Shown here: positions 21,929-36,047 of the stretch, one piece after another | How the letters are laid out: the number at the start of each line of letters is the position of its first letter | How positions within the stretch are numbered: position 1 is the stretch's first letter | Assembly (NCBI GenBank): GCA_965267575.1 | Contig: OZ254086.1 | Coordinates: 224,001-288,000, forward strand | Origin: Calditrichales bacterium | GTDB taxonomy: Bacteria; Calditrichota; Calditrichia; Calditrichales; J004 | Length of the DNA: 64,000 nt | Direction of reading: 5' to 3' | Notes under the pieces: generated by a model | Told to the model about the DNA's origin: nothing | Seen by the model: the letters and a program-made list of their open reading frames with translations, nothing else | Database searches by the model: none | Program-made: the position numbers and the translations under genes

Positions 21929-22072
21929 CTAGTCCAGCCCGGAGTAGTCGATGCGCTCCCCGGCGTAGACGTACTGATCTATAGGGCTGATGATAGAAAC
22001 GGGATTCTTAAAGCCGCCAAACGCCGTTGAACAAAAAATTAAAAGCAGAGAACATACGATTGCGGTTTTCAT
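21929..22072 (-). pseudogene. Truncated 5' fragment of the PKD-Rhs toxin gene
   Basis: Encodes MKTAIVCSLLLIFCSTAFGGFKNPVSIISPIDQYVYAGERIDYSGLD then TAG; homology to the other copies stops at about 21932. Confidence 0.85.
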
Positions 22073-22097
22073 TGTTCTTCCACGTCAGTATTTTCTT

Positions 22098-23027
22098 TTA
22101 AGGCAATATTTTAAAAATAACTGTCTTTTTATTATTTGAACCCATTAAATAAATCTGTTCATTTTGATATTTTATATCATAGTTAAAGCCACCAAACACA
22201 ACCATAAAGTCTTTTCCATATTTGCCCCCAAAGATATTTTCCAAATATGGAACCATATTAATAGAGTTAAAAACTCCATTATCCAGATCAAATTCTCTTA
22301 AGATCAAAGGTCCGTCCAGGGGCACAGCTATGCCACAATCGTTTTCAAAATGCAATATACCAGAAAAATTCTCTAAACCATTGACTACTGTTTTTTTACG
22401 GAGTTCTCCATTTAAATCAATAAAATAAATAAGGCTATCAGAAGGTAGAATAAAATAACCGTTATTATATGCAATCGTCGGCTCAAAAATTAGTGGCTTA
22501 TTAAAGTTCTTTATGTCGATTTTTTTTTCTATCCTCAGATGACCATTGCTTAGACTAAAAGATCTTAAAACCAAGTTGTAACGTTTCTCAAAAAAAGCAA
22601 AAAGTAGGCTATCAACCACGTGATAATCGATAATATTTCCTGATCCGATAGAAAAATTACTTAAAAGAACACCGTTAGTGTTAAATTCGCTTATTTCATT
22701 TTTTGGGACAGTGAAAAGGAATATTGATTTTCTATTCTGATCATATTTTATCTTGCGGATATCCTCAGGTACCTTGAACGTTCTATACAAAGAGTCATTT
22801 TTAAACACGATGATTTTGTTTTTATAATTATCAGGCAAATAGATGAATCCTTTTTCATCAATAGCAAAAGAATAAGGCACGGATTCACTACCTGAGCTTA
22901 TATAGACTTCACTCTTGTTACTATCTTCAAAAGGCACCTCTGAGAAGACGGAAATCTTCTCATTTTGTGAGAAGCATTTCGTGAAAATTATCATAAGAAA
23001 AAAGAACACGCGTAATTTATTTATCAC
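22098..23027 (-). CDS. Exported beta-propeller-like protein, candidate immunity protein
   Basis: Signal peptide; PYSFAIDEKGFIYLPD NHL-like blade; AT-rich; directly downstream of an Rhs tip. Confidence 0.65.
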   Translation of the reverse strand: MINKLRVFFFLMIIFTKCFSQNEKISVFSEVPFEDSNKSEVYISSGSESVPYSFAIDEKGFIYLPDNYKNKIIVFKNDSLYRTFKVPEDIRKIKYDQNRKSIFLFTVPKNEISEFNTNGVLLSNFSIGSGNIIDYHVVDSLLFAFFEKRYNLVLRSFSLSNGHLRIEKKIDIKNFNKPLIFEPTIAYNNGYFILPSDSLIYFIDLNGELRKKTVVNGLENFSGILHFENDCGIAVPLDGPLILREFDLDNGVFNSINMVPYLENIFGGKYGKDFMVVFGGFNYDIKYQNEQIYLMGSNNKKTVIFKILP

Positions 23028-23046
23028 AGTATATCCTTTCCACTGA

Positions 23047-23785
23047 CTACTTACTTAGGATTGGTTTAATGTTGGACGGTTTTTTAGGAAAGGCAATTAT
23101 ACTATAGCCTGCATCTACAACATCACGTCTATTAACTCTTCCAATGCCTGCCATATTGTTATTTAAATATTTACCTTCATTTGTTGAGAATTGCGATTTC
23201 TTTACTCTTTTTGCGGAAGAACTGGCACTTGATAGTGTAATCTGACCATTATTTGGATTGTCTATGGCAACCATTACGTGTGTTATATTGCCAGCGCCAT
23301 TACCAATAAAGACGTAATCTCCTCCTTTTATTTGAGACGCATCATTTGTTTCTATATAGCTTCCAGCTTCGCCCGAATTAATTTCCTCAACTGACATACC
23401 AGATGGATCTACAAAAATTAAAGGATTATTAAATACATAATGATAGGGGGTTTGAGATAGATATTTCCTGCTAAGCGGATCAACAGATAAAAACCTTCCA
23501 ATCACGGGGTCATAATACCGTGCCCCAAAATAATAAAGCCCCAGCCCATTCTCATCATCCAGTTCCTTGCCGGAGAATTTGTAGATATCATTACCGGCGC
23601 CGGATGTGTGGCTGCGTCCGGGCATCCGTAAGCCAAAGGGATAGTAATCATCCTTGCTGACGATTTCGCCCTGTTCGTCCACCGTAACCACGCCAAAGGC
23701 GGGCAGGCGCGGATGTTGCCCAGATGGTCCTTCACATAATTGGTATTCCGGTTTACGCTTGATGGCGATCTGGAAGCTGTAGTAA
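23047..23785 (-). pseudogene. Orphan Rhs core plus tip (partial NlpC/P60-like), 5' deleted and frameshifted
   Basis: Matches the repeat from YYSFQIAIKRKPEY; indel near 23740 and 20 bp insertion at 23688-23707; core ends NNPLIFVDPSG; tip has GDYVFI...ITHVMVA...SASSS. Confidence 0.8.
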
Positions 23786-23873
23786 TTTCTATCGTTTACT
23801 TTTTTGCCGCTTTTTACCGCCTCCTCGTGCTAAGAAGCAGAAAAAAATATAATTTCACCAAGATGTTCTGAAA

Positions 23874-24275
23874 TTAATCGTAGCCCCCAAGTGAATCTGA
23901 TAATATAAATAAAAATTCGTTTCTTGGATTGACCGATAAATCAATATAAATATCTTCGCTGAACATAAAACCGTGACTAACCTCTTTATCTCGCCAAACG
24001 GATTTAACTCTGACTAAGTTATATTTTCCCTTCTCTAAATTAATTTCAAAAACATTTATGTCCTCATGATTAATGCGTGTTAATCCTTCAGAGAAAATTA
24101 ATTTCTCGAATCCGTTATTGTTAACGACAAATATGTTTATTACTTCATCAGGCAAAAATCCATCTGACAGAATCAAATTCAAAGTGATACTGTCTGGTTT
24201 AGAATTAATATCTTGTGCTAAAGAAACAAGAGCTAATAGCACAACAAATAGAACTGACGATATGGTATTATTCAT
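23874..24275 (-). CDS. Exported protein, candidate immunity for the metallopeptidase tip
   Basis: ATG overlaps the TGA of the upstream toxin frame; signal peptide; AT-rich. Confidence 0.65.
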   Translation of the reverse strand: MNNTISSVLFVVLLALVSLAQDINSKPDSITLNLILSDGFLPDEVINIFVVNNNGFEKLIFSEGLTRINHEDINVFEINLEKGKYNLVRVKSVWRDKEVSHGFMFSEDIYIDLSVNPRNEFLFILSDSLGGYD

Positions 24276-25498
24276 TTTTTCTTTGCTCCATACCAAAAAT
24301 TAACTAATTCGTGTAAGCTTTTAATTTGCTTTAAAGTCGTTTTAGTGCCTATTGAGTACTTGGATTGTTGCATAATATTACCAATATCCTTTCGAATTAA
24401 TTCGCCTATGCTATTTCGAGGATGTTCAAGCCCTGCACCGTGTCCAAATTCGTGGGCCCCTGTTCTGGCTAATTGGTTATTCTCGCCAGAACTTGCAAGC
24501 TGCGCAGATACTTTTTGTACAGAACCTAAACGATGGGAAGAACCTAACTTTCCAGGCGCGGTATCGACAAGCTTAATTATGTTATCTCCTTCTCTTGGTT
24601 TCCCACTAGCTATATCAACATTTGCCTGCCATTTAGTTTTTCCATCTTTTGAATGTCCATTAAAAGAAGATTCAATCTGATCTTTAATGGTAGCTGCAAT
24701 ATTATCTAATTGCTCTTAAGTAAAGCTTTCTGAACTTTCATTAACTATTGTAGCAGTATACGTAATAGTATAAGTTACATTGCCATCCTTATCTTCTTCC
24801 TTAGTAGAGGATATATCTTTTCCGTCTGGATCAATATATATAATAGGATTATTGGCCACATAGACATAAGGACTTAGGTTACGATATGAATCGTAGTGCG
24901 GATCAACAGAAATAAACCTTCCTATCTCCGCATCATAGTACCGTGCCCCAAAATAATAAAGTCCCAGCCCATTCTCATCATCAAGCTCTTTACCGGAGAA
25001 TTTGTAGATATCATTCCCGGCACCGGATGTGTGGCTGCGGCCGGGCATCCGTAAGCCAAAGGGATAGTAATCATCCTTGCTTACGATTTCGCCCTGTTCG
25101 TCCACCGTAACCCGGATATTGCCCAGGTGGTCCTTCACATAAAAATGGTATTCCGGTTTGCGCTTGATGGCAATCTGGTAGCTGTAATAGTCTATCGCGC
25201 CTTCGTTGTCTTTTACTTTTAGCTTGATGCTGATGACGCGGTGGGTTTCCGTTTTGTCCAGCATGTAGGTTTGGGAAAAGCCGGAGCCCGTACCCGCCTG
25301 TTGGTCATCTATGTACCAGGTGTATTGGGTAATACTGCCGCCATCAGGATCGTAGCTGTCCAGCCCGGAGTAGTCGATGCGCTCCCCGGCGTAAACGTAC
25401 TGATCTATCGGACTGATGATGGAAACGGGATTCTTAAAGCCGCCAATTGCCGTTGAGCAAAAAATTAAAAGCAGAGAACATACGATTGCGGTTTTCAA
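24272..25498 (-). pseudogene. PKD-Rhs core toxin with metzincin-type peptidase tip, interrupted by one in-frame TAA (24716-24718)
   Basis: Manual translation past the TAA continues in frame: EQLDNIAATIK...AHEFGHGAGLEHP...GNIMQQ...GAKKK*. Confidence 0.85.
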
Positions 25499-25520
25499 TA
25501 CTCTTCCCTTAGACTTCCAA

Positions 25521-25985
25521 TTATTCCCATCCCATTATTTCATAAAATTGTTTTTTAAATGATGATATTTGCGAATTTGAATACAATTTTTTGATGACTT
25601 CTAAAGCTTCCTTAAATCCCCAATAATCTGCAATCTCTTCGTCTTTGCTTTTTCTTCTATTTTTTTTCCCATTTAAAAAATGTTTATGATGATAAAGTTC
25701 ATGCAAAAGAATACGGGATAATTCAAAAACAATGGTGATTTCTTTTTCAAGCATCGAAGATGGATATATATCTAATGTGTCAAACATTATTTCTATTTCA
25801 AATACGCCACCGTCTTTCTTAATCCACCTTCCTGCACTATTTTTTGAAGAATAATCTTTATCTAATAATATAATTTTGTTTATTCCATGAAAATTTTCTT
25901 TTCCATAAGTATCAATTATCTTTTGTAATAATTCTGCTCCATTCCAACTTGTATATTTTTCTTTTCTTAAGTCAACTATATTCAT
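25521..25985 (-). CDS. HExxH-motif protein, candidate immunity protein
   Basis: ILLHELYHH and downstream DEEIADYWG; no signal peptide; follows an Rhs tip remnant. Confidence 0.65.
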   Translation of the reverse strand: MNIVDLRKEKYTSWNGAELLQKIIDTYGKENFHGINKIILLDKDYSSKNSAGRWIKKDGGVFEIEIMFDTLDIYPSSMLEKEITIVFELSRILLHELYHHKHFLNGKKNRRKSKDEEIADYWGFKEALEVIKKLYSNSQISSFKKQFYEIMGWE

Positions 25986-25993
25986 AACAATAA

Positions 25994-26670
25994 CTAATTA
26001 CCTCCACTATTTGGGTCTTCTAAATTCCCAACTGCATCCATCAAATCTTTCAACCTTTGATTTTTAGGACTTAGCTTTTTTGCTTCTTCTTGGAGTTTAA
26101 ATTTCTCAGCTTCTTTTTGTTCAGCAGTTCTTGTGTCTGCACCCTCTTTTTTTCTGGATGCTTCAGCTTTGCTTTTTGCCTTTTTTCCCTGGTTCGCTTG
26201 GTCAGCAGTTTTAGTCTTCGAATTATTACTCGATCTTTCAGTAGGCTGCTCTATTGGATTCGAATCAATTCCCTCGCATTTAAAGGCGTATTAAGCGTAT
26301 AATTATAAGGAGACCACGCCGGATACTTATTTGCCAACGGATCAACCGCTACCCACCTTCCAATCACGGGGTCATAATACCGTGCCCCAAAATAATAAAG
26401 TCCCAGCCCATTCTCGTCATCCAATTCCTTCCCCGAATACTTATAAATATCATTATCCGTGCCGGCATTAAAGGAGCGGCCCGCCATCTGCAGCCCAAAG
26501 GGGTAATAGTCATCATGGCTGACCACGTCGCCGTTTTCATCCACGGTGACGCGGATATTGCCAAGGTGGTCCCACAGGTAGTAGTTGGCCGTGTATTCGA
26601 TCTTGTATTTAACTTCCAGGTAGGGCCGGTTGCTGCTCGCTTCCGAGCTGCGGAAACGGACGTGGCAGAT
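25994..26670 (-). pseudogene. 3' part of a second-type Rhs gene (DNRLRE-like domain end, Rhs core, frameshifted tip)
   Basis: HVRFRSSEASSNRPYLEVKYKIEYTANYYLWDHLGNIRVTVDENG...GARYYDPVIGRW; final DPxG missing; Lys/Glu-rich tip continues in another frame to TAG at 25994. Confidence 0.75.
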
Positions 26671-26786
26671 GTCAAAGAACTAAAAACCCAATCGCGCCCC
26701 AAGCGCGACGACGCATTATAGAGCCCCTATCCCCGGCCATAATCTTGCACGGAAGCCTGAAAGAAGCAAGACCCAATGCGTCAGGT

Positions 26787-26947
26787 CTTTTTGGTTCTTT
26801 TTGGACAGGCAAAAAGAACAATGTGCCTTGACTTAAAATCCCAGGCCAAAAGAAAAATTCTAAATGAGTCTGTCTGACCATTCTCAAGACAATTAGTCAG
26901 GCGGGAATATGAATGTTCTTTTTGTTTAGCCAAAAAGAACCAAAAAG
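26787..26947. repeat. Inverted repeat pair (MITE/REP-like), 34 bp arms
   Basis: 26787-26820 matches the reverse complement of 26914-26947 at 30 of 34 positions; each arm is itself a hairpin. Confidence 0.8.
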
Positions 26948-27047
26948 CATATGCGCTTTCAGAGCGTATTTTGGGCCTGGCGGAGTTGTGTTCGCTGCCT
27001 TCCCCGCTCTACAAATGCGCAGTTCACGCCTCAGGGCGTGATTAGGT

Positions 27048-27233
27048 TTAAAGATTCCCTTTTACATTCTTATAGTTGATGACCGCCGCGGAGATACGCG
27101 CCGTGTAGCTGCTGTCTTCTTCATTGAAGTAGATGTTGGCGTAGTTGCTGCGCTTTACCGGTTCTTCCTGGCCAAACAGTGGTAGGGAGAGAATGAAGGT
27201 GGAAAGGAGAAGGGTGGTGAATTTTGTTTGCAT
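27048..27233 (-). pseudogene. 5' fragment of an exported protein, probably the start of the disrupted gene at 25994-26670
   Basis: Signal peptide then KRSNYANIYFNEEDSSYTARISAAVINYKN, resembling N-termini of WapA-like/DNRLRE proteins; ends abruptly at the repeat region. Confidence 0.55.
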
Positions 27234-27338
27234 GTGCTTTATGCTTAGGCTATAAAAACCATATAAAAAATATGCTTAAGATTACAGCTGAGATTTTCTT
27301 AACTACAGTCTTATTACTAACTGTTGATACCAAACCAA

Positions 27339-27740
27339 TTAATCGAAGACATACAGATCTATGTCTATTGACGAATCTAATTCATAAATATTTTTAATTG
27401 TTGCTTTTTTCAAATTAATAGCCGGCGTTTCATTACCATGCAAATTAACAACACATGATATTTCAGATTCGATCTGATATTTTTCGCAAATTTCCACAAT
27501 CTTTTTTTTAGCAGGCAAAATGATATTAATTAGTTTTTCTATTTCATAATTTAGATCTATCGATTCTGTCTCTTTTGAAGAGAGACACCACCCGTCTTGT
27601 TTTCTTTTTAGGGAAGAGTTCTGAATTTTCTCTCCCATTCTCCAAGTTTTTGTAGGAATTATTCCAATAAACTTAGTTATTTTATCAGGCTTTACACCAA
27701 TACCTGTCAATATAAATGAAACCTTTATTGTAGTTTGCAT
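27339..27740 (-). CDS. DUF4279-like immunity protein
   Basis: PDKITKFIGIIPTKTWRMGE...WCLSS...IDIDLY pattern; downstream of the Ntox33-like tip. Confidence 0.78.
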   Translation of the reverse strand: MQTTIKVSFILTGIGVKPDKITKFIGIIPTKTWRMGEKIQNSSLKRKQDGWCLSSKETESIDLNYEIEKLINIILPAKKKIVEICEKYQIESEISCVVNLHGNETPAINLKKATIKNIYELDSSIDIDLYVFD

Positions 27741-27751
27741 CTTCGTTCCTA

Positions 27752-28873
27752 TTAAAAATTATTAATGTTTAGTCCAGTGGGTTCCCCCGGTCCAGTGGCA
27801 CTTTTTGGTTTTATTTTGATATTTCCTTTCGGGTCTTTGTACAAATCATATTTACTGGCACTTTTTCCGCCTTTAAGATCATGCACATCGACACCCCCAT
27901 CTTTGAGTTTCTTTATCTCCCCTTTTGATAGTTTCTTGTCTTGTGCAGAATCACTGTCTTCCTCTTCTTTATCATTTTCGTTTTCATTATTTGAATCCGA
28001 GTCTTTAACTTTCTTATATAAATGGTACCCCAAAATTCCGCCAAGTATTAGATCGCCTAGCGGAAGTGGCCCATCAATAGCTGCTGCACTTATGCCTACT
28101 GCGACAGCAGCGGCTTCCGCTGCTTCTTCTGGTTCATCCCCTTTATTTTCATCTTCATCTGAGTTTTTATCTTGTGTATCCGTGCTATCCATTCCTGTTG
28201 GGTCAATAAACCTAAGTGGGTTATTACCAACATAATTATAAGGAGTCAAGCTTAAGTAAGAGTCTGAATGCGGATCTGAGGTTGTAAACCGCCCCAAAGC
28301 CGGATCATAATATCTTCCAGGATTAAACCAATACAACCCCAGCCCATTCTCATCATCCAGTTCCTTGCCGGAAAATTTGTAGATATCATTCCCGGCACCG
28401 GATGTGTGGCTGCGGCCGGGCATCCGTAAGCCAAAGGGATAGTAATCATCCTTACTGACGATTTCGCCCTGTTCGTCCACCGTAACCCGGATATTGCCCA
28501 GGTGGTCTTTCACATAAAAATGGTATTCCGGCTTACGCTTGATGGCGATCTGGTAGCTGTAATAATCTATCGCGCCTTCGTTGTCTTTTACTTTTAGCTT
28601 GATGCTGATGACGCGGTGGGTTTCCGTTTTGTCCAGGATGTAAGTTTGGGAAAAGCCGGAGCCCGTGCCCGCCTGCTGGTCATCTATGTACCAGGTGTAT
28701 TGCGTAATACTGCCGCCATCAGGATCGTAGCTGTCCAGCCCGGAGTAGTCGATGCGCTCTCCGGCGTAAACATACTGATCTATTGGGCTGATGATGGAGA
28801 CGGGATTCTTAAAGCCGCCAATTGCCGTTGTACAAAAAATTAAAAGCAGGGAACATACGATTGTGGTTTTCAT
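27752..28873 (-). CDS. PKD-Rhs core toxin with Ntox33-like (predicted RNase) tip
   Basis: Signal, PKD, core ending NNPLRFIDPTG, hydrophobic DGPLPLGD segment, then DVHDLK and DLYKD motifs. Confidence 0.85.
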   Translation of the reverse strand: MKTTIVCSLLLIFCTTAIGGFKNPVSIISPIDQYVYAGERIDYSGLDSYDPDGGSITQYTWYIDDQQAGTGSGFSQTYILDKTETHRVISIKLKVKDNEGAIDYYSYQIAIKRKPEYHFYVKDHLGNIRVTVDEQGEIVSKDDYYPFGLRMPGRSHTSGAGNDIYKFSGKELDDENGLGLYWFNPGRYYDPALGRFTTSDPHSDSYLSLTPYNYVGNNPLRFIDPTGMDSTDTQDKNSDEDENKGDEPEEAAEAAAVAVGISAAAIDGPLPLGDLILGGILGYHLYKKVKDSDSNNENENDKEEEDSDSAQDKKLSKGEIKKLKDGGVDVHDLKGGKSASKYDLYKDPKGNIKIKPKSATGPGEPTGLNINNF

Positions 28874-28883
28874 AGGCACATTT

Positions 28884-29810
28884 CTAAAGCGGCAAATTAT
28901 TCACAACAAAAAACATACCGTTACATCCCCAGATAATTAACTCACCGGATTTGGCCAAAAAGGCAGAATAACAACTATTTAAGGTTGCTAGTTCAGGTAA
29001 ATGTTTATTTAAATTTATTTTATAACTTCCGTCTTTATGTACAATAAAATCGCTAAATTCTTCATCTTCGGTTATTATAAATATGGAGTCATTTAAGCTC
29101 ACAAAAGCGCCATCAAGTGCCAGAAAATCAAAAATCGTATATGTTGTATCCTGATTAATATTAAATTCTAAAACTTTACCCACATAATCGTAAGCACCGC
29201 GGCTGGCGTTATACGTGTCAAATAGATATACTATACTATCTCTGGCGTTTTTAAACTGTCCTATTAAACTTCCTTCGGCATTTAGAGAATCATCACTGGC
29301 AACATAGGTATTGTATTTCTCGGTAGTATAAAATAATCTTTTATTTGCTGTATAATAGATATCTCGAACATCCTTGGCTAAAAAACGAAAAACTTCTTCA
29401 TGATCATCAAATGTGATAGCAATTATGCTGTCACGAGTATTTAAAAATATTTTATTGTCCTCAATGCTAACATATTGAATATTCCATCCTTTAGGGAATA
29501 GGGCTATTTTCTGCAAGGATCTTAGTTTAAAATTAAAATGAAACAATTCGTTTGTTTTATCCCCAAACAACCCAGCTAAATATAATGAGGAGGTATCGAT
29601 TCCCACGATTGATAGTATTTTTATATTAAAATCACCATACAAATATGAAATGGATGAATCTAAAAGAGATTCTTTTTTATATAGTGTATCCGGGACAACT
29701 GTAATTGTTGAATCTAATTTGTAATTGGGATTATCTTTAGCGCTTGGTTTCGCGTTTTTGTTTCCGCAGCTTAAGATAATTAAAATAAAAATTAATATTG
29801 TCGATTTCAC
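28884..29810 (-). CDS. Lipoprotein, candidate immunity protein
   Basis: Lipobox ILSC; beta-rich; AT-rich; downstream of the amidase-like tip. Confidence 0.7.
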   Translation of the reverse strand: MKSTILIFILIILSCGNKNAKPSAKDNPNYKLDSTITVVPDTLYKKESLLDSSISYLYGDFNIKILSIVGIDTSSLYLAGLFGDKTNELFHFNFKLRSLQKIALFPKGWNIQYVSIEDNKIFLNTRDSIIAITFDDHEEVFRFLAKDVRDIYYTANKRLFYTTEKYNTYVASDDSLNAEGSLIGQFKNARDSIVYLFDTYNASRGAYDYVGKVLEFNINQDTTYTIFDFLALDGAFVSLNDSIFIITEDEEFSDFIVHKDGSYKINLNKHLPELATLNSCYSAFLAKSGELIIWGCNGMFFVVNNLPL

Positions 29811-29842
29811 AAGAAGCTCCCATCATAAAGTCTATACTCTTT

Positions 29843-31150
29843 TTAATTGGAATCAAGCCGAAATGCACGCCCACTATTTAAGCCTCTTAGCCACGATTCA
29901 TAAATTGCCCGGCCAATTGGACTATCTGTATTTCTTTTTCTGCTGTCATACGACCTTTTATCTTTGGCCAAAATAAAAGCCTTGGGTTGATTATCACGAT
30001 CAAAGGCCCAATTTGCTCCTATCTTACCATTGTTTTTTCCAATATTATACACAATTGGAACCATTTTGCCCCACTCTGTACTTGGTATCATATCTTCAGG
30101 AGCTACAATAGCCACATGTCCCGAACCATTTTCGTTAAAAGATGCCAATATTGTTGTTATCCCTTCCTTCGCGTAATTAGCCGCCTGTTCATAGCTAATT
30201 TCTATTGCATTTGGCTCGTCTAGCGGAACAGACATTAAAAAACTATACATGTCATTTGCGCGCATACCATCTAGTGAATGGTCTTGTCCTTCATTTAAGA
30301 TATCCCTTACTCCAAAATTACAAAACGTAGTAAGATTTATATTTATCATTTCGAAGCCATCGTCAAGCGTAGTAACAGAACCGCTAAACCAATACCTGGG
30401 CTGAAGATTGCTGTCATTTACTATCTTCATTCCTGCCTCATTCAGTTTTGCGGCTGTGCCAAAATCAGCTTTCCCATCGGGATCAACTCTATTTATAGCA
30501 TTGTTATGAGTGTATTGAAAAGGACTGTCACTTAAAAATTTATCCGCCAACGGATCAACCGCTACCCATCTGCCAATCATGGGGTCATAATACCGTGCCC
30601 CAAAATAATAAAGTCCCAGCCCATTCTCATCATCCAGTTCCTTGCCGGAGAATTTGTAGATATTATTGCCGGCACCGGATGTGTGGCTGCGGCCGGGCAT
30701 CCGTAAGCCAAAGGGATAGTAATCATCCTTGCTTACGATTTCGCCCTGTTCGTCCACCGTAACCCGGATATTGCCCAGGTGGTCCTTCACATAAAAATGG
30801 TATTCCGGTTTACGCTTGATGGCGATCTGGTAGCTGTAATAGTCTATGGCGCCTTCGTTGTCTTTTACTTTTAGCTTGATGCTGATGACACGGTGGGTTT
30901 CCGTTTTGTCCAGCATGTAGGTTTGGGAAAAGCCGGAGCCCGTGCCGACCTGCTGGTCATCTATGTACCAGGTGTATTGGGTAATACTGCCGCCATCCGG
31001 ATCGTAGCTGTCCAGCCCTGAGTAGTCGATGCGCTCCCCGGCGTAAACGTACTGATCTATCGGGCTGATGATGGAGACGGGATTCTTAAAACCGCCAAAC
31101 GCCGTTGAGCAAAAAATTAAAAGCAGAGAACATACGATTGCGGTTTTCAT
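29843..31150 (-). CDS. PKD-Rhs core toxin with CHAP/papain-like Cys-His amidase tip
   Basis: Strong RBS GGAGG; core ends NNAINRVDPDG (residue 226); tip has TTFCN...ANDM...GHVAIVAP. Confidence 0.85.
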   Translation of the reverse strand: MKTAIVCSLLLIFCSTAFGGFKNPVSIISPIDQYVYAGERIDYSGLDSYDPDGGSITQYTWYIDDQQVGTGSGFSQTYMLDKTETHRVISIKLKVKDNEGAIDYYSYQIAIKRKPEYHFYVKDHLGNIRVTVDEQGEIVSKDDYYPFGLRMPGRSHTSGAGNNIYKFSGKELDDENGLGLYYFGARYYDPMIGRWVAVDPLADKFLSDSPFQYTHNNAINRVDPDGKADFGTAAKLNEAGMKIVNDSNLQPRYWFSGSVTTLDDGFEMININLTTFCNFGVRDILNEGQDHSLDGMRANDMYSFLMSVPLDEPNAIEISYEQAANYAKEGITTILASFNENGSGHVAIVAPEDMIPSTEWGKMVPIVYNIGKNNGKIGANWAFDRDNQPKAFILAKDKRSYDSRKRNTDSPIGRAIYESWLRGLNSGRAFRLDSN

Positions 31151-31287
31151 TGTTCTTCCTCCGCGGCTTCGCGTTTCTCCAGCCAGGCCAGTTCGTCTTC
31201 GCAGATAGCGGCTTCTTCACTCTCCGGCCAGCCGCTCTTTATTTCCGTAAATAGCGTACGTGCTTCTTCCCACTGTCCGTCGCATTG
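31147..31287 (-). pseudogene. 3' remnant of a TPR-like gene coupled to the toxin start
   Basis: GQWEEARTLFTEIKSGWPESEEAAICEDELAWLEKREAAEEEQ* with ATGA overlap; host-like GC content. Confidence 0.6.
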
Positions 31288-31346
31288 TCGCTACTACTTT
31301 TGGGACATGACCCTTAATAAAATACGACAAACTACAAAACTTGTAG

Positions 31347-32042
31347 TTACTCTAAGAGCCTAAATAGTAATTGTTCTTCTATATCAAATTGGTTGTTCTC
31401 ATATTTGTACAATAAAACATAATAGCTTATAACATTGCCCTTTTGTGTTTTAAAAAATTGTTCATAGTAATAGTTGCCATCTTCCATAACAATTTGATTA
31501 TTTGGCTCTATCTTATATTCATTAATGAGATAATTAAACTCGTCTTTATTTTCGGCGGCAAAAATAGTAGCTTCACTGCCTATAAAAATCTCACTCATTA
31601 TATTTATTATTTTATTAAAACTTGCCTTAGTAACATCTTCTAAAAAAAACCTATTTACGAAATCAATAATATTATTTTTATTTAGGTCATAGGTCTCATA
31701 ATCATATTCCCGAATGTGTATGGCAAAAATAACCTCGCTATCTATAAATATACTCTGAATGTCGTGTTCAGCTTTATAAAATCTAACATCATCAACTTTT
31801 TCGAGTAAAGTTAAAAGTATAGCGGTATCTGAAAGGCTTGTAACCTTATTAATTAGTGTAAACATCTCATTAACGTCTTTTTTGTTAACCTGTTCGTGAT
31901 GTTTCACGATTGAACGAACAAAATAAAACCTAGAAAAATCTTTAACTTCTTCTACGCTTAGTACGGTTTGTCCCTTACAAAAAAGCACTGTACTGAATAC
32001 GAAAAGAATTTGTATTAAGTAAGACATGCCCATTTTACTCAT
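31347..32042 (-). CDS. Exported protein, candidate immunity protein
   Basis: Overlaps the upstream toxin stop; hydrophobic N-terminus; AT-rich. Confidence 0.65.
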   Translation of the reverse strand: MSKMGMSYLIQILFVFSTVLFCKGQTVLSVEEVKDFSRFYFVRSIVKHHEQVNKKDVNEMFTLINKVTSLSDTAILLTLLEKVDDVRFYKAEHDIQSIFIDSEVIFAIHIREYDYETYDLNKNNIIDFVNRFFLEDVTKASFNKIINIMSEIFIGSEATIFAAENKDEFNYLINEYKIEPNNQIVMEDGNYYYEQFFKTQKGNVISYYVLLYKYENNQFDIEEQLLFRLLE

Positions 32043-33240
32043 TCTTTTTTTCCTCGGTTGGCGTGAATATTAATTCATCTAGTTCCTCATTAGACAAATC
32101 CTGATAATTATTATCTTCTTCTGTTTCTTCGTAATATTCACTTGTTGCTTGTGATTCGTTTGCCTTAGCTTCTTCTGTACAAACCCCACTCGATGACTTT
32201 ATTAAATGCGAATTATCAGGATTATTAACATTATAAAAGTTTGCTTGGTCTTCTGCAGAATTTAAATTTCCTTGCTCTATAGCATGCGTTGCTTCATTTG
32301 TAAGCGTACCTACTGCTTGTGAACCTGCAGGATAAAGCTTAGATGAATTATCTAAACTTATAGTGGTAATTGTTGTTACTTTCTTTTCGCTAAATTTGGA
32401 ATAATTAGATATTGTATTTGCGCGTGCATTCATCTTGCTTTTCGTTCTAAATAGCCACCGCTGATTTTTATTTTTAAGTACCTTATTGTGAAGAGCACGA
32501 TATTTTGCCGACGTTCTATATGCTTTTCTTACTGCCCATAGAACTTTATTATTTTTAGGTTTAATTACATCTTTTCCATTAGGATCGATAAATTTTAGTG
32601 GATTATTTGCAACATAACTGTATGTTGATAGCCTAGGATAAGAACCAGCATGGGGATCAACTGAGCCAAACCGACACACCGCCGCATCATAGTACCGTGC
32701 CCCAAAATAATAAAGTCCCAGCCCATTCTCATCATCAAGCTCTTTACCGGAGAATTTGTAGATATCATTGCCGGCACCGGATGTGTGGCTGCGGCCGGGC
32801 ATCCGTAAGCCAAAGGGATAGTAATCATCCTTACTGACGATTTCGCCCTGTTCGTCCACCGTAACCCGGATATTGCCCAGGTGGTCTTTCACAGAAAAAT
32901 GGTATTCCGGCTTACGCTTGATGGCGATCTGGTAGCTGTAATAATCTATCGCGCCTTCGTTGTCTTTTACTTTTAGCTTGATGGTGATGACGCAGTGGGT
33001 TTCCGTTTTGTCAAGCATGTAAGTTTGGGAAAAGCCGGAGCCCGTGCCGACCTGCTGGTCATCTATGTACCAGGTGTATTGGGTAATACTGCCGCCATCG
33101 GGATCGTAGCTGTCCAGCCCGGAGTAGTCGATGCGCTCCCCGGCGTAAACATACTGATCTATCGGGCTGATGATGGAAACGGGAGAGGCAGCAAGACTAA
33201 AGGCAAGAGTTGTTAAGACCAGTAAAATAGCTTTTTTCAT
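32035..33240 (-). CDS. PKD-Rhs core toxin with alternative signal peptide and zincin-like tip
   Basis: MKKAILLVLTTLAFSLAAS joined to the shared PVSIISP block; core ends NNPLKFIDPNG; tip has LTNEATHAIEQ...EEAKA. Confidence 0.82.
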   Translation of the reverse strand: MKKAILLVLTTLAFSLAASPVSIISPIDQYVYAGERIDYSGLDSYDPDGGSITQYTWYIDDQQVGTGSGFSQTYMLDKTETHCVITIKLKVKDNEGAIDYYSYQIAIKRKPEYHFSVKDHLGNIRVTVDEQGEIVSKDDYYPFGLRMPGRSHTSGAGNDIYKFSGKELDDENGLGLYYFGARYYDAAVCRFGSVDPHAGSYPRLSTYSYVANNPLKFIDPNGKDVIKPKNNKVLWAVRKAYRTSAKYRALHNKVLKNKNQRWLFRTKSKMNARANTISNYSKFSEKKVTTITTISLDNSSKLYPAGSQAVGTLTNEATHAIEQGNLNSAEDQANFYNVNNPDNSHLIKSSSGVCTEEAKANESQATSEYYEETEEDNNYQDLSNEELDELIFTPTEEKKNE

Positions 33241-33261
33241 TTTTAATCATCCGCAAAGGGA

Positions 33262-34428
33262 TTATTTCTTAGATTTTTCCAAAAGCTTGTTAAATAAGGG
33301 CAGCTGTTTAAAGGCTTCAGTCTTTATTTTTAAAGCCATATTATAGTCTTGAGCATCTTGGCTAAAATGCCTTGATGTTTCATATATTTTTAGGTTTTTG
33401 GATAAGAGCGTATATGCAGATTGATATTCTCTTTTGGCTAGCAATATCCTTGCTTTAACACGTACCGGAAAGATTAAATTCACCTCGCCCCAATCATATT
33501 TTTCTATGAGGTCAGAGCAGATACTTTCGGCGATATCATTATTTCGTAGTCCAGCATTGGCCTGTGCTACCCAGGTTTTAAGGTAAATATATCTCTGGTC
33601 ATAATCAGGATCGTCTTTATTTAATTCATTAAGCGCATACTCGAAGTGTTTGATACCTTCTTTTTCTTTTCGCCAGAGACAATATAATATTCCATAATCT
33701 TCGTGTATTTCATGTAGGGTAATAGCCTCAGGTGCGTATTTAAACAAAGCTTTTATATAAGATTCTGCTGTTTCAAAAGCCTTTTTTTTGGTAAAAACAT
33801 GACGCAGGATTCGTAAATTAGAAACTATGTTTATTTTATCCTTTAAGTATTTATTGGCTTTCAGCCCGTATTTTATAGCTTTATCATATTCTTCAAGCTC
33901 AAAAGCATATAAACTGGCGAGATAATAATTAGCTAATCCTGTGCCGGTCGAAAGGCCGTCTGCCTTTTTGTAGTATTCTTTGGCTTTCTCGTAGCCCCCC
34001 GTTTCTTCATAATTAGAACCGATATTTATATAACATCGTTCCTGATATTCAACACCTTCAGGGTCGGAAATACTCTCATAAATATTTAAACACTTGAAAT
34101 AGAAATCGTTTGATTTACTAAAATCTTTTAAGTCACTATACAAGCCGCCGAGACAATAATATATCTCTCCTAGTATTTCATCATCATTACCAGATATATT
34201 TTCTAATGCCGCCAAAAAATATTTTTCGCTTTTGCTGTCCTCATCTAATTGATGGTGCAAAATTTTGCCGACTTCAAAATCAAAAAGATACCCAAAGGGC
34301 GCATAGTCACCCTTAATTCGTAATAGACCTTCGCAGGCTTTTAACAACGCGTTTTGCTGTTCAGGAACATCTTTAATATAGTTTTCAATAACCTCTTTTG
34401 TCTTCTTTTTTGTTATTTTTTTATTCAT
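33262..34428 (-). CDS. Tetratricopeptide repeat protein
   Basis: Repeated TPR-like units (YYCLGGLY, YINIGSNY...YEKAKEYY); AT-rich; no signal peptide. Confidence 0.8.
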   Translation of the reverse strand: MNKKITKKKTKEVIENYIKDVPEQQNALLKACEGLLRIKGDYAPFGYLFDFEVGKILHHQLDEDSKSEKYFLAALENISGNDDEILGEIYYCLGGLYSDLKDFSKSNDFYFKCLNIYESISDPEGVEYQERCYINIGSNYEETGGYEKAKEYYKKADGLSTGTGLANYYLASLYAFELEEYDKAIKYGLKANKYLKDKINIVSNLRILRHVFTKKKAFETAESYIKALFKYAPEAITLHEIHEDYGILYCLWRKEKEGIKHFEYALNELNKDDPDYDQRYIYLKTWVAQANAGLRNNDIAESICSDLIEKYDWGEVNLIFPVRVKARILLAKREYQSAYTLLSKNLKIYETSRHFSQDAQDYNMALKIKTEAFKQLPLFNKLLEKSKK

Positions 34429-34476
34429 CTTCTTTGATCTCAGTCTCGTCTTTTTCTTCCTTCCTTTTTCTCTTTT

Positions 34477-34866
34477 TCAATATACCCTCAACCCCAAATA
34501 CTCTTCCATGGGATTAAAATCCTTGTCGGAGTGCAAAAGAGAAAAACCCTTTTCGATACAAAAAGTCCCGATAATAACATCAATCGTCTTTCTGATGGTG
34601 ACACCCTTTTTGCGCAAATAGCGGAAGTTTGTCGCGCTTTTTATGGCAAGCTCTTTTCCAAGCATATCGTAGCACTCCAGATGTTCAAATAAGGATTTGG
34701 CTTTTTCGAAATCCTTGTCCTTGTTAAAGCCCTGCAACACTTCCGTCAAAATAATATCGCCGGTTACGATATACTCCTGCCCGAGAATTGCCTCAAGCCG
34801 TGCCACCTGCGTTGTCTCCACGCCGTTGAAAAAATCAATCCAAACCGATGAATCCACCAGGATCAT
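34477..34866 (-). CDS. vapC: VapC PIN-domain toxin
   Basis: ILVDSSVWIDF, EVLQG, RKTIDVII, LLHSDKDF. Confidence 0.93.
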   Translation of the reverse strand: MILVDSSVWIDFFNGVETTQVARLEAILGQEYIVTGDIILTEVLQGFNKDKDFEKAKSLFEHLECYDMLGKELAIKSATNFRYLRKKGVTIRKTIDVIIGTFCIEKGFSLLHSDKDFNPMEEYLGLRVY

Positions 34867-35060
34867 GAATCTGTCCTGAGCTCATCCAGATCGCCGGTCC
34901 ATTTCAGTTTGCCTTTGTATTTGCGCAAGGATTCCTGTTTTTTCAGACGCACCAGAAGTTTCAGCGCTTCTTCAACGGCCTCCTTTTTAGTCTTATAGCC
35001 GCCAAGCTTTAAAGCCTGTTCGATAAGCTGGTCGTTTAATACAATATTTGTTCGCATCAC
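34863..35060 (-). CDS. vapB: VapB antitoxin
   Basis: MRTNIVLNDQLIEQA...TKKEAVEEAL...WTGDLDELR; overlaps vapC. Confidence 0.92.
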   Translation of the reverse strand: MMRTNIVLNDQLIEQALKLGGYKTKKEAVEEALKLLVRLKKQESLRKYKGKLKWTGDLDELRTDS

Positions 35061-35516: not shown

Positions 35517-36047
35517 TCACATTTCTCCAAAGGCCTTTTCAAAAACACCGTAATCTTTCTTTGAATAAAGCACAAAATGGATTTCCAGCCCGGCGTTGCT
35601 TTCATTTAAAAAATCAGCCGCGGTAGAAAGCATCAGCGGGGCGGCGCGCTCTATGGGGTAGCCAAAAATGCCCGTGCTGATGGCCGGAAAGGCGATGCTG
35701 TGCAAATCGTTTTCGACCAATACCTCCAGGCTACGGCGCGTGGCCGACGCCAGCTTGTTGTCCTCATCGCCCTCACCCATACGCGGTCCCACAGCGTGGA
35801 TCACGTGGCGCGCCTTCAGCTTGCCGCCACCGGTAATCACCGCGTCACCGGTTTTAACGGGCTTCAGCTTATTGCTCTCTTCCTGGATGCTTTGGCCGCC
35901 CTTGGAGACGATCGCTCCGGCCACACCGCCACCGTGAGCCAGCTGGTTATTGGCCGCGTTGACGATGGCGTCGCAATCCATTTCCGTCAAATCACCCTGC
36001 TCGATAATGATTTTTCCTTTATTGACAGCGCCTTCTTTCATTATCAC
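35517..36047 (-). CDS. Macro domain ADP-ribose-processing protein
   Basis: GDLT, AIVNAAN, GGGVAGAI, VIHAVGP, AFPAISTGIFGYP. Confidence 0.93.
   Translation of the reverse strand: MIMKEGAVNKGKIIIEQGDLTEMDCDAIVNAANNQLAHGGGVAGAIVSKGGQSIQEESNKLKPVKTGDAVITGGGKLKARHVIHAVGPRMGEGDEDNKLASATRRSLEVLVENDLHSIAFPAISTGIFGYPIERAAPLMLSTAADFLNESNAGLEIHFVLYSKKDYGVFEKAFGEM

Follow-up and report, generated by a model that had tools for sequence, protein, structure and literature searches.

A tandem array of PKD-bearing Rhs core-and-tip genes with no detectable shell in a Calditrichales genome, and its relation to split Rhs operons of other bacteria

We examined a 64,000-nucleotide stretch of the genome of a Calditrichales bacterium (NCBI GenBank assembly GCA_965267575.1, contig OZ254086.1, positions 224,001 to 288,000 of the forward strand; hereafter 'the window', whose own numbering is used below), in which positions 21932-33240 hold a tandem array of genes related to the C-terminal part of Rhs toxins. 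All copies of the repeated block, and all genes of the island that contains them, lie on the minus strand. The array comprises one 5' fragment, two orphans and four full copies of a block of ~550 bp, the full copies being 94-96% identical. The product of each full copy starts with a hydrophobic, signal-like N-terminus, continues with a single PKD domain and an Rhs-associated core, and ends in an AT-rich tip that is unrelated from copy to copy; a partner gene comes next. We refer to these full genes as cartridges (g1 to g4); three are intact and one (g4) carries an in-frame stop.

With the copy at 29843-31350 as a blastn query against the window, the block was found at 32687-33184 (95.6% identity, 498 nt), 28330-28873 (94.5%, 544 nt) and 24933-25507 (95.7%, 575 nt), with fragments at 21932-22081 (95.3%, 150 nt) and 23476-23784 (86.8%, 311 nt). 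These agree with the recurring block and fragments described in an initial annotation of the window, whose list lacked one further diverged copy at 26327-26572 (79.7%, 246 nt); a repeat search of the window returned the same families as blastn. The island (~21930-34480) has a GC content of 0.26-0.45 between flanks of 0.50-0.56. Within it, the tips (0.30-0.45) and partner genes (0.26-0.32) differ from the block (0.47-0.52) and from the genome (0.496). A scan for promoters and terminators gave 36 and 10 sites against 38 and 11 expected, and was uninformative.

Cartridge g1 (32035-33240, 401 aa) has a signal-like N-terminus unlike those of the other copies and ends in a 177-aa tip. It overlaps by 8 nt with its partner gene (31347-32042, 231 aa, GC 0.29), which encodes a candidate immunity protein with a signal-like N-terminus and no Pfam family. 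Cartridge g2 (29843-31150, 435 aa, with a 208-aa tip) is followed at 28884-29810 by a gene for a 308-aa candidate periplasmic immunity protein (lipoprotein-like N-terminus, …ILSC/G; GC 0.31; no Pfam family). Cartridge g3 is listed at 27752-28879 (375 aa), the ATG homologous to the start of the other copies being at 28873; its core is joined by a linker to an Ntox33 tip, and its partner (27339-27740, 133 aa) matches DUF4279 (E 4e-25) and is a candidate cytoplasmic immunity protein for Ntox33. Cartridge g4 (24275-25498) has TTG where the other copies have ATG. Its open reading frame (ORF; 24716-25498, 260 aa) ends at a TAA (24716-24718) 34 codons past the core, and the frame stays open onward to 24275, with a metzincin-like HExxHxxGxxH motif in the 147 codons after the stop. 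The partner of g4 (23874-24275, ~133 aa from an ATG at 24275, signal-like N-terminus) overlaps the end of the g4 frame at its start (ATGA).

The remaining members of the array are incomplete. An orphan core copy at 26251-26741 (TIGR03696 E 6e-17) consists of a DNRLRE-like end and a core, has neither start nor signal and is broken at the core end. It is 86.6% identical to genome positions C1:1858952-1859361, where a DNRLRE-like domain precedes the core of a second core family of this genome, and the core thus serves as a recombination handle between families. The 154-aa gene after this orphan (25521-25985, GC 0.26) has an HExxH-like motif and a below-cut-off match to Peptidase_M91 (E 1e-3); it may be a partner or a displaced tip. 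A second orphan cassette (23047-23829, TIGR03696 E 1e-20) retains the last PKD strand, the core and an NlpC/P60-like tip (NLPC_P60 E 0.003, below cut-off), has no signal or start of its own, and has its frame broken by extra bases at the core start. Its partner (22098-23027, 309 aa, GC 0.31) has a signal-like N-terminus and no Pfam family. The downstream end of the array is formed by the 5' cartridge fragment (21932-22081), in which a start codon, a signal and the first PKD strands occupy 47 codons before a stop. Overall, four partners have a signal- or lipoprotein-like start, and the DUF4279 partner of Ntox33 has none.

TIGR03696 (Rhs_assc_core) matched all six core-bearing array ORFs with E-values of 1e-17 to 1e-20 and scores of 62-74 bits (cut-off 32.5). 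Placed directly after the PKD domain, the core matches TccC3, YenC2 and type VI secretion system (T6SS) Rhs proteins over their C-terminal ~105 residues, as far as the second Asp-Pro motif (E 6e-13 to 2e-11 for TccC3 and YenC2). Both Asp-Pro motifs of the aspartyl autoprotease are present, as aligned to TccC3, and self-cleavage is predicted from them. In a solved Rhs protein this region is the C-terminal plug, an aspartyl protease domain embedded in the barrel, and a change of the second-motif Asp abolishes cleavage (passages retrieved from PMC8636562). The PKD_4 matches of the cartridges fall below the Pfam cut-off (21-24 bits against 27). The same region matched collagenase PKD domains in a PDB sequence search (E 7e-5), and a Foldseek search with its model retrieved the PKD domain of ColG (E 3e-7, TM score 0.89 on the target); at the level of sequence and predicted fold, these searches confirm a beta-sandwich of PKD type. 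In the AlphaFold2 model of g3, the per-residue confidence (pLDDT) was >90 for the PKD domain, 48-89 for the core and mostly <50 for the tip.

YD repeats were looked for with PF05593 (RHS_repeat), which matched 0/13 array proteins (the full cartridges are 375-435 aa long), and a Pfam scan found no SpvB/TcB N-region, propeller or YD cocoon in the array genes. The initial annotation had described shell-less genes with a PKD domain fused directly to the Rhs core, and both features were borne out. It had further described the genes as having start codons and both Asp motifs, with a tip and a partner gene for each copy, and this was borne out as well (g4 has TTG in place of ATG, and an in-frame stop). 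The Sec signal that it placed before the PKD domain may correspond to the hydrophobic N-termini (a 12-residue stretch of mean Kyte-Doolittle 2.5-2.7 in the array), a signal call that was made by hydrophobicity and by A-x-A/G sites judged by eye.

The tips differ in how far they can be named. That of g3 matches Ntox33 (PF15533) at E 2e-21 (76.5 bits against a cut-off of 28.4). The passages retrieved from PMC3482391 list no immunity family for Ntox33, and since the DUF4279 gene directly follows the Ntox33 cartridge, we regard DUF4279 as a candidate Ntox33 immunity family. The g1 tip had no Pfam or PDB sequence match; in a protein atlas it fell near zinc-peptidase effector clusters (scores 0.89-0.90), a weak lead only. 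The g2 tip had no PDB sequence match and no known family, and only four relatives, two of which carry the precomputed YD-shell Pfam family PF25023. The part of g4 after its stop, scanned alone, gave weak matches to Peptidase_M10 (E 0.017) and Reprolysin_3 (E 0.044).

The genome is a single contig of 4.73 Mb, 98% complete. With blastn of the whole genome the block was found only in the array, and no long Rhs gene contains it, which contradicts the idea that it is an internal piece of a full-length Rhs gene. TIGR03696 matched nine places: six in the array, two short ORFs and one 2522-aa SpvB/TcB/TcC-like fusion, which has its own tip and its own core, dissimilar to that of the cartridges. The array has the canonical Rhs traits of a variable C-terminal tip, a downstream partner gene (a candidate immunity gene) and displaced orphan tips, and one could see in it the usual silent rhs-CT orphans that follow a canonical Rhs gene. 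The cassettes at 23047-23829 and 26251-26741 are such orphans, and a relative (G037) has an array of 5'-truncated PKD-core orphans that retain the last PKD strands. The four full copies, however, have their own start and signal-like N-terminus (as do 57/74 family members elsewhere, see below), and the gene upstream of the first copy encodes a TPR protein rather than an Rhs protein; as an explanation for these four, silent orphan cassettes are already contradicted, and we regard this reading as highly improbable.

Repeats that are 94-96% identical could also have been multiplied by the assembly, and short-read contigs do break inside them. In short-read contigs from four runs of one sample, each unique tip and partner segment, together with its junction into the repeats, was nevertheless covered with 0 differences; the junctions are therefore real, while cassette order depends on the long assembly. 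Most differences between the copies are at synonymous sites, and other genomes have the same array design, so that we give an assembly artefact a negligible probability. In a separate observation, some short-read contigs diverge from the window at 23423-23929, 26793-26841, 31952 and 32829 and continue with other sequence; at these points the shared core may be joined differently in further strains or organisms of the sample.

We searched exhaustively with the first 240 residues of g2 and obtained 218 cluster representatives at E <= 1e-30, of which the best 149 were counted. PKD and core were both covered in 79 of these, and 74 of the 79 are 250-506 aa long (median 437) with the match starting within the first 70 residues. 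The N-terminus is hydrophobic in 57/74, and the others look 5'-cut. Among 77 aligned members, RHS_repeat matched none (0/77), and the two autoprotease Asp residues are kept in 76/77 and 77/77. Tip families across members include TseH, Tle3, lipase, VanY, RNase, Ntox33, M91 and JAB, and the hosts are Balneolales, Ignavibacteriales and Calditrichota. In species genomes, the full architecture was present in 7/66 loci among the matches listed (Balneolaceae, Ignavibacteriales/-aceae and an unclassified metagenome-assembled genome, MAG). In Calditrichota, core matches occur in 44/86 genomes, and the whole PKD part only in the genome studied here. A name was given for 3/10 members looked up; two of these, NCBI records of Gracilimonas tropica and of a Bacteroidota MAG, bear only the label 'RHS repeat-associated core domain-containing protein'. 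A metagenome scan with the closest relative, P0002, gave 56 pattern matches, 0 of them confirmed. The family comparisons, made on sequence, support the view taken in the initial annotation that the cartridges are distinct, and point to a widespread family.

Two features of individual relatives deserve mention in their own right. In six Calditrichota proteins (P0004, P0030, P0037, P0040, P0055 and P0071) an interleukin-like EMT inducer (ILEI) domain (PF15711) is inserted within the core, between its GKELD and YYFGARYYDP segments, and P0004 combines this insert with the signal and PKD of the window's family; an insert of ~180 aa in a normally buried plug is hard to reconcile with a closed shell. 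At locus L060 (1-7224) the genes directly before a cartridge form a cluster like those of type II secretion or type IV pili, with Pfam matches to T2SSF, pseudopilin, T2SSE and secretin, and at L026 (5794-7887) T2SSF and pseudopilin genes lie within 3 kb of one. Such neighbours may hint at an outer-membrane export route; the window's genome has one secretin, distant from the array.

In other genomes, cartridges of this family follow a separate shell gene. On a Balneolaceae chromosome (L081/L092), a signal-bearing shell of 2086 aa (DUF6443 and RHS repeats), which ends without core or tip, is followed by a signal-bearing 575-aa middle gene (a CBM20-TPR protein) whose stop overlaps the start of the cartridge. 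The order shell, middle gene, cartridge was found in 11 loci of 7 genomes (G086 x3, G087, G151 x2, G191 x2, G166, G190 and G238), with a shell frame of 1068-2086 aa in 10/11; G166 keeps only the last 139 aa of the shell, beside an intact middle gene and two intact cartridges. A twelfth locus (L028, Ignavibacteriales) has a middle gene and two cartridges and then reaches the contig end, and at L030 a gene of its own, with ribosome-binding site and signal, encodes the cocoon part. Several split loci carry two or three signal-bearing cartridges in tandem, like the window, and the window genes align over the whole conserved part with the split-operon cartridges (A1/A4). A full-length middle gene was present in 6/151 sampled Balneolales genomes; in Calditrichota it gave 19 matches across 14/86 genomes, none of them full-length. 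The middle gene of G238 is unrelated to the CBM20-TPR one, and that of L120 has no detectable relation to it.

Aligned to a canonical Balneolales Rhs protein of 2257 aa, the shell corresponds to residues 1168-1941 and the cartridge core, at 64% identity, to residues 1951-2070. Since shell and core align end to end on this protein, the two genes sum to one Rhs, broken at the boundary between shell and plug. Two long Calditrichota Rhs proteins (L115, 2206 aa, and L116, 2491 aa) carry an immunoglobulin-like (Ig-like) insert between shell and core, and by this arrangement of parts are fused intermediates. The ends of the separate proteins also go together: shell tails of the type WVLPGG… / VVLPGG… pair with cartridges whose mature start holds EEC (4/4 loci), and tails of the type AGGQ(I/V)IGQI… with cartridge starts holding (I/V)PP (4/4 loci), both types being present in one genome, G086. 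This pairing may reflect common descent alone.

From locus L092 we co-folded the shell's cocoon part (residues 1300-2080) and residues 24-240 of the cartridge, which leave out signal and tip. The interface score ipSAE was 0.89 in 3/3 runs (0.00 for the best of 3 controls); 58/80 solved complexes and 2/110 mismatched pairs reached this mark. The runs agreed in at least 97% of contacts, with a partner pLDDT of at least 87. In the model, cartridge residues 129-133 pair with the very end of the shell (2074-2080), and the core contacts mainly shell residues 1805-2080. From the PKD part (24-125) a single residue lies in the confident interface, the contacts being made by the core, which gives no support to the proposal of the initial annotation that docking might run through the PKD domain. 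Its broader proposal, a shell encoded elsewhere with which the cartridges dock, is strongly supported by comparison with other genomes (the 11 split loci, the exact break and the co-fold), but no shell of this type was detected in this one. In this organism either of its two suggestions, action without a shell or docking, may hold.

No core-less YD shell of the split-operon type was found in the window, nor in the genome by tblastn, hmmsearch (six-frame ORFs of at least 60 aa) or profile search; the same shell profile matches canonical Rhs genes of other Calditrichota. The CBM20-TPR middle gene was likewise not found by tblastn or profile search of the genome, and hmmsearch gave one weak match (E 0.005). 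The TPR protein of the window is unrelated to the accessory (middle) protein of the split operons (hhalign probability 0.2%). A search of the genome with Pfam TEN_YD-shell gave no match and is uninformative, since the control was positive in only 1/14 genomes. With neither shell nor middle gene detected, the cartridges here stand without their usual partners.

The cartridges might instead dock with some other carrier in the genome, either the 2522-aa TcB/TcC-like cocoon or an unrecognised protein. The cocoon, encoded at C1:94960-102525 (L010) in an intact frame, contains SpvB, TcdB mid-N/mid-C, FG-GAP and an RHS repeat, has a C-terminal tip and a core of its own, and by these domains is a fused TcB/TcC-like cocoon protein. 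It is the one YD cocoon that the genome encodes, a motif count over all ORFs of at least 250 aa singled out it alone, and its core region matches the cartridge profile (E 5e-24). We nevertheless consider docking of this kind quite unlikely: the protein brings a core and tip of its own, lacks a signal-like start, lies 150 kb away and is missed by the shell profile, and the genome holds no other copy of the PKD domain.

Because cartridges of the same family follow separate shells in other genomes, we take the array to consist of cartridges of a split Rhs toxin system that here lacks its shell. As one overall account, covering both the family and autonomous action in this organism, we hold this to be on balance probable. 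In the family, shell, middle gene product and cartridge would all be exported by Sec. The plug of the cartridge would then complete the open shell in trans, carrying the tip inside, and the two aspartates would cut after the DPxG motif; one shell could thus serve several separately expressed cartridges. In this organism the cartridges would still be made and exported. Each would most likely be a secreted toxin that is complete in itself and cleaves itself, the PKD domain serving for binding. The envelope would be the site of action of tips whose partners are exported, and the cytoplasm that of Ntox33, whose partner is cytoplasmic. The conserved block serves as the recombination handle, and the array contains orphaned tips both from this family and from a second core family. 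A sharper form of this account, to which we give a tentative place as possible but doubtful, is a two-part Rhs whose secreted core-less cocoon is loaded after export by any of several cartridges, and whose plug works in this genome without a cocoon, as an autonomous self-cleaving module.

That the cartridges have been in use is suggested by their codons. Over the 158 codons of PKD and core, the six pairs of the four copies differ by 15-23 synonymous and 2-6 non-synonymous changes, with synonymous divergence (dS) of 0.17-0.27, non-synonymous divergence (dN) of 0.005-0.016 and dN/dS of 0.02-0.10 in 6/6 pairs. This codon comparison shows the PKD-core block of all four copies to have been kept by strong purifying selection, and the low ratios imply that the copies diverged as working proteins, possibly before the island reached this genome.

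The island might alternatively be a stranded remnant that lost its shell or reached this genome without it. Its cartridges could then no longer be delivered, and the array would be retained chiefly for the protection that its partner genes give against neighbours with the full system. The genome, in one contig and 98% complete, yielded neither shell nor middle gene, and the array contains one in-frame stop, one TTG for ATG, two orphans and a 5' fragment. Elsewhere, G166 retains two intact cartridges beside its 139-aa piece of shell. In the closed relative G006, the core ORFs inspected lack an intact N-terminus, and a transposase-like gene separates N-domain from core in two copies. Against this, three full genes retain start, signal-like N-terminus, PKD, core and tip, and the dN/dS ratios in all six pairs would be unexpected for unused sequence, unless the divergence predates the loss. 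We judge a remnant rather unlikely, if a serious alternative. We had considered G006 as a second shell-less case in support of autonomy and rejected it, its core ORFs being without intact N-termini and two copies holding the transposase-like gene. That gene (532 aa) lies between a DNRLRE-like part and the core at L121 7982-11391 and L122 6316-9761, in near-identical copies.

Several points weigh against a split system whose cartridges act alone in this genome. Shell detection used profiles of one shell type, and the genome search with Pfam RHS_repeat (E <= 0.001), which gave no match, also missed the TcB/TcC-like protein (hmmscan E 7e-5). Since the plug sits deep inside the barrel in solved Rhs (passages retrieved from PMC8636562), a plug working alone is without precedent; the AlphaFold2 confidence of the block alone was moderate (means 48-89), two of the cassettes are orphans, and a stop interrupts the frame of one copy. 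In G006 the core ORFs are all short, and the copies inspected, which have no intact N-terminus, show that shell-less genomes can be graveyards. The synonymous divergence could predate transfer of the island, in which case selection may not have acted here, and the runs listed as containing the array, four from one sample, include no RNA run. The co-fold was made on a Balneolaceae pair and not on proteins of this genome. In solved Rhs and Tc cocoons these parts belong to a single chain, so that its high score may be a memory of those structures; as a prediction, it shows likeness, not binding.

Among known systems, the cartridges are closest to canonical Rhs/YD toxins (T6SS Rhs and the WapA-type, Sec-exported proteins), with which they share the plug matched by TIGR03696, both Asp motifs, a tip after DPxG, a downstream partner and orphan tips. 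Unlike those proteins they have no YD repeats, begin with their own signal-like N-terminus and carry a PKD domain directly before the core, and any shell is a separate gene that ends before the core. The long Calditrichota Rhs proteins L115 and L116 have the same part order of shell end, Ig-like domain, core and tip, but on one polypeptide, whereas the window genes begin at the Ig-like domain with their own signal-like N-terminus. In the BC cocoon of Tc toxins (TcdB2-TccC3, YenB-YenC2) a YD cocoon is likewise made from two polypeptides, and it is the C-terminal ~105 residues of TccC3 and YenC2 that align with the cartridge core. The Tc break, however, lies inside the cocoon wall, such that TcC keeps half the shell together with core and toxin, whereas that of the split Rhs lies between the whole shell and the plug; the split Rhs parts, moreover, all carry N-termini like Sec-type signals, and no TcA-like or SpvB/propeller part accompanies them.

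A further likeness is to Sec-dependent toxins with a stand-alone releasing peptidase (the 'T2SS' class of PMC3482391, under which the passages retrieved list Ntox33), which combine a signal peptide and a small region ahead of the toxin with a self-processing module, a variable tip and an immunity gene. The releasing modules of that class are HINT, ZU5, PrsW, caspase and MCF1-SHE, with no shell-free Rhs plug in the passages retrieved. Zhang et al. 2012 lists Sec-dependent Rhs toxins and Ntox33, and the passages retrieved contain no shell-free or split Rhs core. The initial annotation had left it possible that the architecture is already a described family; we found no description of a shell-less or split Rhs in the literature searched, which did not cover subscription journals.

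Rhs and Tc toxins are understood as cocoons enclosing a toxin made on the same chain. If shell and plug-plus-toxin are indeed separate exported proteins, the toxin would be enclosed after Sec export, silent orphan arrays would become live, individually expressed warheads, and many toxins could be delivered from one shell without recombination. A split system would allow one to ask how a toxin enters and leaves a YD cocoon, and cartridges kept under selection without a shell would make it possible to ask whether the plug domain can do anything by itself.

The remaining features of the island and its surroundings are less directly tied to the cartridges. Directly upstream of the array, a gene at 33262-34428 (GC 0.34) encodes a 388-aa TPR protein (Pfam TPR_12, E 6e-10) with no signal-like N-terminus, which probably belongs to the same island. 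Between the g1 partner and g2, a GC-rich spacer (31151-31346, minus strand) holds the last ~45 codons of an otherwise absent ORF, whose TGA overlaps the ATG of g2 (ATGA). No significant similarity to the spacer was found anywhere, including in the middle gene of the split operons, and the same ATGA junction, present between middle gene and cartridge at L081, is a suggestion only. The ~420 nt between the g3 partner and the orphan core (26673-27095) recur at C1:4065307-4065730 (88.6%) and C1:1997017-1997439 (75%), with partly overlapping stretches beside L011 (see below); this dispersed repeat overlaps a 61-aa signal-like ORF at 27048-27233.

Elsewhere in the genome, C1:1855000-1864000 (L011) holds the second short core family, in which the end of a DNRLRE-like domain lies directly before the core; several of its members are fragments, and one donated the orphan at 26251-26741. 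A third core-plus-tip locus lies at C1:1643000-1649000 (L012), where repeated tip fragments are interspersed with genes for small multi-pass membrane proteins, which are immunity candidates. Immediately upstream of the island, two ORFs at 34477-34866 (129 aa) and 34863-35060 (65 aa), which overlap by 4 nt, resemble by eye a PIN-type toxin and its antitoxin, and a 176-aa ORF at 35517-36047 is, again by eye, a macro-domain look-alike.

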